DNA from: a virus
Taxonomy: Duplodnaviria > Heunggongvirae > Uroviricota > Caudoviricetes
IMG/VR virus record: IMGVR_UViG_2778261574_000002
Direction: 5' to 3' (one strand)
DNA: 64,000 nucleotides
Shown here: in pieces, positions 57,507 to 57,959 of the stretch
Numbering within the stretch: position 1 is the stretch's first letter
Layout: every line of letters starts with the position of its first letter
Program-made: the position numbers and the translations under genes
Notes under the pieces: generated by a model
Seen by the model: the letters and a program-made list of their open reading frames with translations, nothing else
The model's database searches: none
What the model was told of the DNA's origin: nothing

Positions 57507-57959
57507 CGTTATTGTGGCGACCGGTGCTGATCTCCGGCTTGCGGTTATTTCAGACTCTCACGGGCGTTTAATTGCCCCGCCGAACAGCTCTTTTCCGCAA
57601 TAGCTGCAATGTCTTTCGCGCATCAGCCTGCGCATTCACCACAACGTTGAGAACACTGGTTGTCACGCGCAACGCAACATTTATTCGTAGATTGGGATAT
57701 GACCCCGTTACGCCAGTGTTCTCAACGTTGTAGTGCCGGTTACGGTTCCGGCCAGGCCTCTTCCTCAACGGGGTGTTCTCCATACGGACTACCGTTTATT
57801 GGTCGTTCCTGCGGTTTATGTTGTGAAGCCAGATGCTTATCTTCTGGTTGCTTCAAAGAGCTGCACTTCATCACAACGGTAAGAGCATTTATGGCTCGCA
57901 TCGCGGGAAAAAGCCCACGGTAGAGAGTCGAACTCTACAAATGCTCTTACCTGTTGTGT

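Follow-up and report, generated by a model that had tools for sequence, protein, structure and literature searches.

Hairpins with a common base, a co-varying stem and variable inner cargo among the tRNA genes of a P1-like ban operon leader: candidate RNase III-type processing stalks

Introduction

The stalks of the rRNA operons and the intergenic sites of the T7 early region are sites of RNase III processing, at which a cut in a helix separates the products of a polycistronic RNA. Double-cleavage substrates of the E. coli enzyme have preferred base pairs at given positions near the cut, in a proximal and a distal box and with G-C between the cuts. RNase III is not the only enzyme of stable RNA maturation that is said to act on small phage RNAs: the C4 antisense RNA of P1 and P7 is, according to work attributed to Hartmann et al. 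(PNAS, 1995), reportedly matured by RNase P and mimics the acceptor end of a tRNA. The tRNA cluster of T4 is likewise said to contain a stable RNA, 'species I', which Paddock, Fukada, Abelson and Robertson reportedly found in 1976 to be cleaved by RNase III in vitro. For phage lambda, in vivo RNase III sites in the late RNA were reported by Daniels, Subbarao, Blattner and Lozeron (1988, Virology 167:568; cited in PMC7547250). STnc100 and PasD, finally, are documented Hfq-associated small RNAs of prophages (Zhu, Shabalina and Storz 2026, bioRxiv 10.64898/2026.05.13.724894).

Here we analyse a long inverted repeat, called hairpin C in what follows, between two tRNA genes of a P1-like phage. The repeat does not stand alone: many phages carry copies of the modular family to which it belongs, and its stem has a base in common with the tRNA-like modules on either side. 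The best explanation of the repeat is an RNA element, and not a DNA site.

Results

The locus is the leader of the ban operon

The window, by which we mean the whole analysed stretch of 64,000 nt, belongs to a P1-like phage (Punavirus), and over the stretch with the hairpins it is 90-94% identical to P1, P7, RCS47 and D6. The homologous DNA of the P1 reference is the leader of the C1-repressed ban operon, where Pban/Op72, a 'dicF-like region', tRNA genes, tciABC, tRNA-Ile and ban follow each other on one strand. By homology to P1 Op72/Oban, the operon starts in the window at 58862..58899, with the Pban promoter and a bivalent C1 operator palindrome.

The order of elements in the transcript, which reads the minus strand, is as follows. 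After Pban comes the dicF-like leader, in which a terminator scan finds a terminator-like hairpin at 58682-58704, and then hairpin A (58412..58493; repeat search and fold), which lies upstream of tRNA-Arg and is conserved in P1 and D6. Hairpin A is followed by tRNA-Arg, tRNA-Tyr, tRNA-Thr(tgt) (57960..58035; ARAGORN and Rfam) and hairpin B (57872..57958; repeat search, fold and family scan), which begins 1-2 nt past the CCA of tRNA-Thr. Hairpin B is succeeded by a tail module of about 150 nt (57727..57877), delimited by the precursor fold and by direct reading of the sequence, and this by hairpin C (57637..57735). A second tail module of about 135 nt (57511..57645) leads to tRNA-Ser(tga) (57420..57506; ARAGORN and Rfam), at whose CCA hairpin D starts (57306..57419; fold and cargo comparison). 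The 3' part of the transcript contains, beyond hairpin D, an STnc100-like tail module (57190..57310; sub-threshold Rfam match), two ORFs, tRNA(CAU) and ban. Hairpin C is therefore found on the transcribed strand of a C1-controlled operon leader, with tRNA-Thr as its upstream and tRNA-Ser as its downstream neighbour in the precursor. Neither ARAGORN nor Rfam RF00005 calls a tRNA in 57507-57959.

The window thus holds four sibling hairpins, A, B, C and D. A permissive motif scan of the whole window gave matches at the rate of shuffled sequence except for copies B and C, and for this reason no new copies were added.

The inverted repeat and its fold

An inverted-repeat search places the arms of hairpin C at 57637-57659 and 57713-57735; they are 23 nt long, 96% complementary and separated by a 53-nt spacer. 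The perfect 19-nt core ACAACGTTGAGAACACTGG occupies 57641-57659 and its exact reverse complement 57713-57731, precisely where the first-pass annotation had placed a perfect 19-bp repeat with a 53-nt spacer between the Ser-like and Thr tRNAs. On the transcribed strand the 5' arm is CACUACAACGUUGAGAACACUGG (57735->57713) and the 3' arm CCAGUGUUCUCAACGUUGUGGUG (57659->57637). The repeat ranks first among the inverted repeats of the 64-kb window, where the only others of similar size are the C1-operator palindromes, and we estimate that 64 kb would contain by chance only about 5e-5 perfect inverted repeats of 19 bp with both arms inside 200 nt.

Folded as minus-strand RNA, hairpin C has a free energy of -54.5 kcal/mol (z = -8.74), which is equalled by none of 200 shuffled sequences (0/200); the plus-strand fold of the same repeat has -44.6 kcal/mol. 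When the 616-nt precursor from tRNA-Thr to tRNA-Ser is folded as a whole, the hairpin is kept in both the minimum free energy and the centroid structure. The stem has 22-23 bp in the fold, 19 of them in a perfect run, and all 19 of 19 pairs are formed in the family scan. This is an intramolecular duplex of the size, about 20 bp or two helical turns, that is expected of double-cleavage substrates of E. coli RNase III. The length and the perfection of the duplex fit the reading of an RNase III stalk.

Hairpin C has no Rfam match at E<=1, and Rfam at permissive thresholds, applied to this region of the window and to related loci, gave no family. The STnc100 model (RF02076) does not match hairpin C itself, and neither C4 antisense RNA (RF01695) nor the Y RNA-like Rfam families match at E<=1 anywhere in 54000-64000.

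A family of hairpins with a common base

The family to which hairpin C belongs is defined here by a CACAAC...GUUGUG base, a co-varying stem of about 20 bp and a variable inner cargo of about 7-170 nt. It has more than 50 distinct members in lambda, in Stx and other lambdoid prophages, in P1, P7 and D6 and in other Enterobacterales; 46 distinct hairpins came from one IMG/VR scan with the junction of 3' arm and tail as query. P1, D6 and Ro157c2YLVW carry 3-4 copies each. Among genome contigs, most of the 102 matches were chance 17-mer matches or contamination by lambda control DNA, and after their removal genuine copies remain in ten genera of Enterobacterales: Serratia, Yersinia, Rahnella, Pantoea, Klebsiella, Kluyvera, Enterobacter, Trabulsiella, Rouxiella and Superficieibacter. 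The phages in which such long helices are found are temperate phages of Enterobacterales, and at least one virulent phage has a closing stem that is related.

Hairpin C has all the attributes of the family. Its base, UACAAC with GUUGUG, follows the general form (C/U)(A/G)CAAC with GUUG(U/C)G, in which CAAC and GUUG are invariant or nearly so among 40 aligned members. Its stem is of the continuous kind, about 19-23 bp with a co-varying middle, and downstream the 3' arm is succeeded by GUGAAU, a small hairpin and a module closed by the complement of UUGUGGUG. An intact hairpin C is dispensable in some relatives, since Ro157c2YLVW and SJ46 keep only half of it.

In lambda, the family consensus CACAACAGGUAAGAGCAUUG...CAGUGCUCUUUCCGUUGUG is found at 44787-44862, directly after the 6S/tR' terminator, and no other helix of about 19 bp is present in the late leader from tR' to gene S. 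Unlike hairpin C, which is a perfect duplex, this copy contains a bulged A and a U.U mismatch. The classical RNase III hairpin of the lambda N leader is, by sequence, not a member of the CACAAC...GUUGUG family. In the Stx2a and mEp460 phages two copies are located in the PL leader, the leftward early operon, where a gap of about 780 nt downstream of the gene for the CI repressor is unannotated.

Covariation and strand asymmetry

When covariation was evaluated, the arms were taken by position and not by pairing. In the register class of hairpin C (19 sequences) 93.7% of the cells are paired and double changes occur at 15 of 20 pairs; these counts, and those that follow, are of cells and not of independent events, the number of which they overstate because the sequences are related to each other. 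These values are reached in none of 500 shuffles (0/500), and structures slid by 1-3 columns pair in only 32-56%. In the bulged-A class (23 sequences, including lambda and hairpin B) 92% are paired, with double changes at 10 of 20 pairs and with one conserved non-canonical position, mostly U.U. Compensatory changes run through more than 40 distinct homologues of hairpin C, and the P1 orthologue of hairpin B has compensatory changes in its arms as well.

A second property of these alignments concerns the strand. On the transcribed strand of the family hairpins there are 60 G.U pairs versus 12 A.C mismatches, and this argues against recognition as double-stranded DNA. A long stable hairpin in a polycistronic precursor, or a small structured RNA, had been suggested from the repeat by itself; the transcribed strand, the compensatory changes and the ratio of G.U to A.C all bear this out, and the conservation of pairing in relatives is clearly in favour of structure.

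Cargo inside the closing helices

The cargo of hairpin C (53 nt, 57712->57660 on the minus strand; fold and cargo comparison) forms two sub-hairpins, the first with the conserved motif ACGGGGUCAUAUCCCAAUC. Cargo of this subtype, with a co-varying outer stem around A(C/A)GGG-N-CUCAUAA-CCCAAUC, is also found inside closing helices of different sequence, in Stx phages and at three IMG/VR loci (L012, L048 and L081). In the family as a whole, cargo length extends from about 7 nt, in an 'empty' hairpin of 46 nt that occurs at many loci, to about 170 nt, and the cargo is the least conserved part, with a constant CAAC/GUUG base and a constant stem length. From the existence of the empty version and from the range in cargo length follows that the stem, and not the cargo, is the constant part of the element.

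Hairpins like the T arm of tRNA occur in 4 of 51 cargoes, versus 0.05 expected; the cargo of hairpin B, for instance, opens with GUAGAG-UUCGACU-CUCUAC. The cargo of hairpin D, a module of about 65 nt (57331-57395, minus strand; cargo comparison), recurs at 98-100% identity in lambda, where it adjoins a long hairpin instead of being within it and is closed by GUUGUGCUG/CAGCACAAC. It recurs again in EmilHeitz, a virulent phage of the rV5-like group, where it stands between tRNA-Ser and tRNA-Lys and has an unrelated closing stem of 8 bp. Since the same modules recur inside unrelated closing stems, each inner module is a portable unit, for which a long stem serves as the closing helix.

A weaker possibility is that the cargo loop GGG-(C/G)UCAUA(A/U)-CCC, with three G-C pairs and CAU, may mimic the anticodon stem-loop of initiator tRNA, and it is similarly conceivable that such a loop could be a decoy for an anticodon nuclease or an initiation factor. 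We have downgraded this mimicry, as its strict definition applies to one cargo only and the motif CAUAACCCAAUC also resembles the 3' end of a module, CACAACCCAAUC.

Tail modules and strands with two partners

The 3' arm of hairpin C runs unbroken into GUGAAU and a small hairpin (GGUGAAUGCGCAGGCUGAUGCGC, 57640->57618). This small hairpin, GCGCA-GGCUGA-UGCGC at 57618..57633 (minus strand), stands directly after GGUGAAU, was identified as conserved by comparison within the family, and has compensatory variants in P1 (GCACA/UGUGC) and at locus L063 (GCGUA/UACGU). In family tails the module past the small hairpin has about 120-130 nt. The tail of hairpin C (57511..57645, minus strand), delimited by sequence comparison and by the closing-stem test, has a tRNA-like topology: UUGUGGU(G), which is shared with the end of the 3' arm, pairs with CGCCACAA at 57519->57512, and this closing strand is preceded by the hairpin GCCGG-AGAUCAGCA-CCGGU (57538->57520). 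The tail is 93-100% identical to a segment of the PL-operon leader in lambdoid and Stx prophages.

The closing strand was tested for as a Watson-Crick 8-mer with at most one mismatch against a positional background. By this test CACCACAA, the complement of UUGUGGUG, is present 55-190 nt downstream in 83 of 105 distinct tails, versus 13% of background windows; a version of the closing-stem test that allows G.U pairs is without power, as controls also reach 8/9 pairs. A hairpin stands directly before the closing strand in 88% of the cases versus 29% of controls, and N-CCA comes after the strand in 22%. A few tails (L138, L159) have canonical D- and T-arm sequences. Most tail-module loops, with 9 nt (AGAUCAGCA), differ from canonical T-loops, and among the tail modules of 12 related loci there is none that ARAGORN recognizes as a tRNA; the term 'tRNA-like' is for these two reasons used of topology only.

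The tail of hairpin D scores 35.1 bits with Rfam STnc100 (RF02076), for which the gathering score is 47, and its closing stem is UGCGGUG/CACCGCA. At locus L010 a full STnc100 match begins about 10 nt inside a family hairpin, at positions that the Rfam consensus leaves unpaired.

The lowest 6-7 bp of hairpin C consist of CUACAAC and GUUGUGG, and each of these strands has a second partner. CUACAAC (57733->57727) can pair with GUUGUGA, at the end of hairpin B, and then closes the preceding module, and GUUGUGG can pair with CCACAAU and then closes the next one. As the strands are shared, the long helix excludes both of the flanking closing stems, and they exclude the helix. Copy D has C in place of U in its 3' arm (UUGCG), and a matching change is present in the 5' arm (CGCAA) as well as in the closing strand of the tail (CACCGCA). 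This three-way compensation, as read from sequences of one or two lineages only, is suggestive.

Discussion

A candidate processing stalk

The observation of a conserved RNA hairpin is solid, and the analysis establishes its structure and strand, its covariation, the family, the closing stem of the tail modules and the base that hairpin and tail modules share. As for its mechanism, we lean, by a modest degree of confidence, toward hairpin C being a candidate processing stalk of RNase III type, which would separate the modules of a polycistronic precursor. A processing site had been among the functions suggested in the first-pass annotation, and it is the most likely one; the cleavage itself, and the order of the steps described here, we infer. 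Hairpin C would be transcribed from the C1-controlled Pban within a long precursor, and the long helix would form co-transcriptionally, using the closing strands of both neighbouring modules. As the base of the helix is built from CUACAAC and GUUGUGG, neither neighbour would be able to close as long as the helix is intact. Host RNase III would then cut both strands of the helix of about 20 bp, by which the upstream RNA would be parted from the downstream RNA and the cargo freed as a stem-loop of about 70 nt. Subsequently, the half-arms would melt, the flanking modules would close their acceptor-like stems, and their ends would be trimmed as in pre-tRNAs. This trimming is speculative, because of the non-canonical 9-nt loops and the lack of an ARAGORN tRNA call.

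According to PMC6212723, the double cuts that RNase III makes in vivo depend on rnc, leave 2-nt 3' overhangs and fall in intramolecular stems; the two cuts are separated by 58 nt at the median, which fits the roughly 70 nt expected for hairpin C. The lambda copy of the family, as the only helix of its length in the late leader, may have been seen functionally already in 1988, when in vivo RNase III sites were reported for the lambda late RNA. It can also be observed that family hairpins occur directly after the CCA ends of tRNAs, a place at which a stable 3' hairpin, if left uncut, would keep exonucleases from trimming. Against the stalk stand the half copies of hairpin C in Ro157c2YLVW and SJ46, and the RNase III hairpin of the lambda N leader, which by its sequence is outside the family.

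One may go further and consider a general scheme, which we offer tentatively and regard as less probable than its negation. Chains of tRNAs, of tRNA-like Hfq-binding small RNAs of STnc100/PasD type and of small modules would be joined by linker helices, the bases of which are made from the closing strands of the neighbours. Mutually exclusive three-way pairing would enforce an order of maturation (RNase III, refolding, pre-tRNA-like trimming), and the cassettes would be swapped among lambda-like, P1-like and rV5-like phages.

Other readings of the repeat

If the hairpin itself were a stable small RNA, its long stem would be a scaffold that presents cargo loops (e.g., GGGGUCAUAUCCC) for base pairing or for binding of a protein or enzyme, and RNase III would be inessential. 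Cargo subtypes are indeed conserved across phages inside different closing stems; the motif ACGGGNCUCAUAACCCAAUC of cargo C is common to at least five lineages and has a co-varying outer stem, and T-arm-like hairpins (4/51 cargoes, 0.05 expected) also point in this direction. We nevertheless find this rather unlikely, as many members are essentially without cargo (the 46-nt 'empty' form), the cargo is what is least conserved, and no target or partner was identified. A small RNA of this kind is compatible with excision by RNase III, which could release it. The hairpin could alternatively act at the level of DNA, as a hotspot of recombination or a cassette boundary, either by homologous exchange between arms or as an attC-like single-stranded hairpin, and this would explain the shuffling of tRNA and small-RNA modules. 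Mosaic joints do coincide with the hairpin: lambdoid phages share 57512-57658, with matches that end inside the 3' arm, classic P1 shares 57618-57770, and SJ46 and Ro157c2 break inside the cargo. In addition, the tRNA content differs among P1-like phages and is partly common to rV5-like phages, and the most invariant bases, CAAC...GUUG, recall the AAC/GTT cores of attC. Ordinary homologous recombination is, however, expected to leave joints at conserved sequence, and no dedicated function is needed to explain them. The arms (A)CACAAC / GTTGTGG depart from the attC R''/R' consensus RYYYAAC / GTTRRRY by one position each, no integron-type integrase is associated with the hairpin or annotated in P1 or lambda, and all sites are inside transcription units and on the transcribed strand, so that we hold a role in recombination to be distinctly improbable.

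The perfect 19-bp arms, and the presence in the same window of P1 operators, some of them in palindromic pairs, are what speaks for an operator or a similar DNA palindrome to which a dimeric protein binds, as had also been suggested for this repeat. That suggestion is largely refuted and we give it very little credence: the arms are 53 bp apart, at a distance that varies from about 7 to 170 bp in homologues, their sequence is free to vary as long as pairing is kept, the excess of G.U over A.C is unexpected for recognition of double-stranded DNA, and there is no similarity to the C1 operator ATTGCTCTAATAAATT. It is just as hard to believe that the region encodes protein, with the repeat as an incidental feature, even though the P1 RefSeq record annotates plp (a lipoprotein gene on the opposite strand) and upl over this DNA and the minus strand has ORFs of 71 aa (57568-57783) and 25 aa (57558-57635). 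The plp frame is broken in the window by a frameshift at residue 19/20, inside the cargo of hairpin C, and in Ro157c2YLVW it is distributed over three frames. The C-terminus of plp lies antisense to tRNA-Thr, and most P1-like plasmids are without a PGAP gene at this place. The 25-aa ORF is not conserved across tail variants (at locus L009 there is a stop at codon 7), and a PHROG search with five small ORFs that overlap the hairpin gave no matches. A coding explanation was rejected on both strands. Most improbable of all is a signal in transcription, an intrinsic terminator or a put-like RNA for processive antitermination, a reading to which one is led by the lambdoid members, which stand a short way past promoters and terminators of early and late transcription. 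What comes after the stem is GGUGAAUGCG and not a U-run, several copies stand in series within one operon, and a scan for terminators and promoters found nothing at hairpin C. Identity with put RNA (putL/putR) was rejected because HK022, in which the put RNAs are defined, has no family member in its whole genome.

What is new and what it would mean

Hairpins in polycistronic phage RNAs at which RNase III probably cuts are of a kind already known. The family as a whole and its conserved base with interchangeable cargo appear to be undescribed in Rfam and in the literature searched, and the same appears to hold for the fixed junction with STnc100-type tRNA-like modules and for the sharing of strands between linker helix and module. 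Literature searches on the P1 ban leader and on the arm sequences returned nothing usable.

If the processing reading of hairpin C is correct, a conserved RNA element of lambda, Shiga-toxin phages and P1 has been overlooked by annotation; Rfam has no model of it, and among the roughly 1,100 E. coli genomes in which part of it occurs there is none with a feature annotated for it. The element would set the boundaries of small-RNA and tRNA modules in phages, it would explain how tRNAs and Hfq-binding small RNAs (STnc100, PasD) are released from long leader transcripts, and it would provide a structural reason for the mosaic exchange of modules between phages. The plp and upl genes on the opposite strand of P1 would then be flagged as probable artefacts.

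Comparison with known systems

Species I of T4 resembles the present case in being a structured RNA, other than a tRNA, within a phage tRNA cluster; T4 is virulent and unrelated to this phage, and similarity in sequence to species I is not expected. The C4 RNA is a precedent from P1 itself for a small RNA, not a tRNA, that is cut from its precursor by enzymes of tRNA processing, and as such it bears on the tail modules. It is located in immI and not here, and hairpin C is without an acceptor-like 3' end. STnc100 (RF02076) and PasD are of the same type as the module that follows the hairpins; the hairpin is outside the Rfam consensus structure and is not described in bioRxiv 10.64898/2026.05.13.724894.

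With the rRNA stalks and the T7 sites hairpin C has in common that the flanks pair into a helix of about 20 bp or longer around an inner RNA. There is no sequence relationship to them, the cargo is here 7-170 nt instead of an rRNA or mRNA, and the base of the helix is in the present case shared with the closing stems of the neighbouring modules. The lambda late leader, from an RNA for which Daniels et al. (1988) reported RNase III sites, is like the ban leader in that it carries a hairpin of the family, at lambda 44787-44862. Lambda has this one copy and no tRNAs, whereas the window has four copies that stand among tRNAs.

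tRNA-like tail modules and a further conserved module

The segments that follow the hairpins, exemplified on the minus strand of the window by 57511-57645 after hairpin C and by the STnc100-like 57190-57310 after hairpin D, have a tRNA-like topology, and this holds for the STnc100-like members too (105 tails, related loci L007-L229). The closing stem is UUGUGGUG/CACCACAA, with a hairpin immediately ahead of its 3' strand; N-CCA is found in about 22%, and canonical D- and T-arm sequences in a few. The shared topology suggests that prophage sRNAs of the STnc100/PasD type are derived from tRNAs or mimic them.

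Within the tail module after hairpin C, a 25-codon ORF, MRRLMRERHCSYCGKELFGGAIKRP, runs on the minus strand at 57558-57635 (L005 2459-2536) from an AUG within GGUGAAUGCG and overlaps a conserved small hairpin. The ORF is identical in Stx phages and is not kept in other tail variants; in L009 there is a stop at codon 7.

A module of about 65 nt, AAUUAAGCGAAUNCCGGAAGCAGAACCGGAU...GGCGUCAUCGCC, lies at 57331-57395 (minus strand) and recurs at L128 565-633, which is lambda 44864-44932, and at about 790-850 of L234. It is kept in lambda, in the P1-like phage of the window and in virulent rV5-like phages, its closing stem differs in each of the three, and it has no match in Rfam. It looks like a conserved small RNA that was not known before.

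The tRNA set and exchange within the element

In Rfam, the tRNA-Ser(UGA) at 57420-57506 (minus strand) scores highest as tRNA-Sec, with 41.8 bits against a gathering score of 47, and in the D6 record tRNAscan-SE was unable to assign its homologue. It shares about 83% identity with a tRNA of rV5-like phages, and so do tRNA-Tyr and tRNA-Arg. These likenesses suggest an exchange of this part of the tRNA set (Ser, Tyr, Arg) with virulent phages.

Some P1-like phages (L002 at about 2100-2300, SJ46, here H50, and CMS-2020a, H49) retain only the 5' arm of hairpin C and the first half of its cargo, the inner 53 nt. This means that recombination joints fall within the element, and also that these phages can dispense with an intact copy.

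Leader, operators and annotated genes

On the minus strand, some 170 nt after Pban, the dicF-like leader ends in a terminator-like hairpin and U-run (58682-58704), so that read-through is needed for expression of the tRNAs and ban. Rfam families of tmRNA also match this stretch (58543-58711) weakly, with scores below threshold. Elsewhere, at 26781-26894, an inverted pair of P1 C1-operator sequences, ATTGCTCTAATAAATT, 66 bp apart, indicates a putative further C1-controlled site.

Hairpins C and B are overlapped by plp and upl, annotated in P1 on the opposite strand (plus strand, 57572-57923; L001 2659-3228), and tRNA-Thr is antisense to the end of plp. The plp frame has a frameshift at Plp residue 19/20 in the window and is broken up into three frames in Ro157c2YLVW, and PGAP calls no gene at the site in most P1-like plasmids. 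Both are probably spurious CDSs.

Likenesses outside the phages

The exact lambda late-leader sequence also turns up in unrelated taxa (Pseudomonas, Oceanobacillus, Segatella, Tardiphaga, Shewanella and others): about 22 species-representative genomes have it, on contigs that are very short or of low coverage (loci L137, L140, L153, L156, L158, L165, L166, L173, L174, L185, L187, L190, L202, L203, L206, L210 and others). This is almost certainly contamination of the assemblies by lambda control DNA.

The cargo loop of hairpin C, GGGGUCAUAUCCC (within 57660-57712, minus strand; GGGCUCAUAACCC in the Stx-phage version), resembles the anticodon stem-loop of the E. coli initiator tRNA, with its three G-C pairs and CAU. 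This likeness may be a coincidence, because the cargo motif CAUAACCCAAUC is also similar to the 3' end of the tail modules, CACAACCCAAUC.
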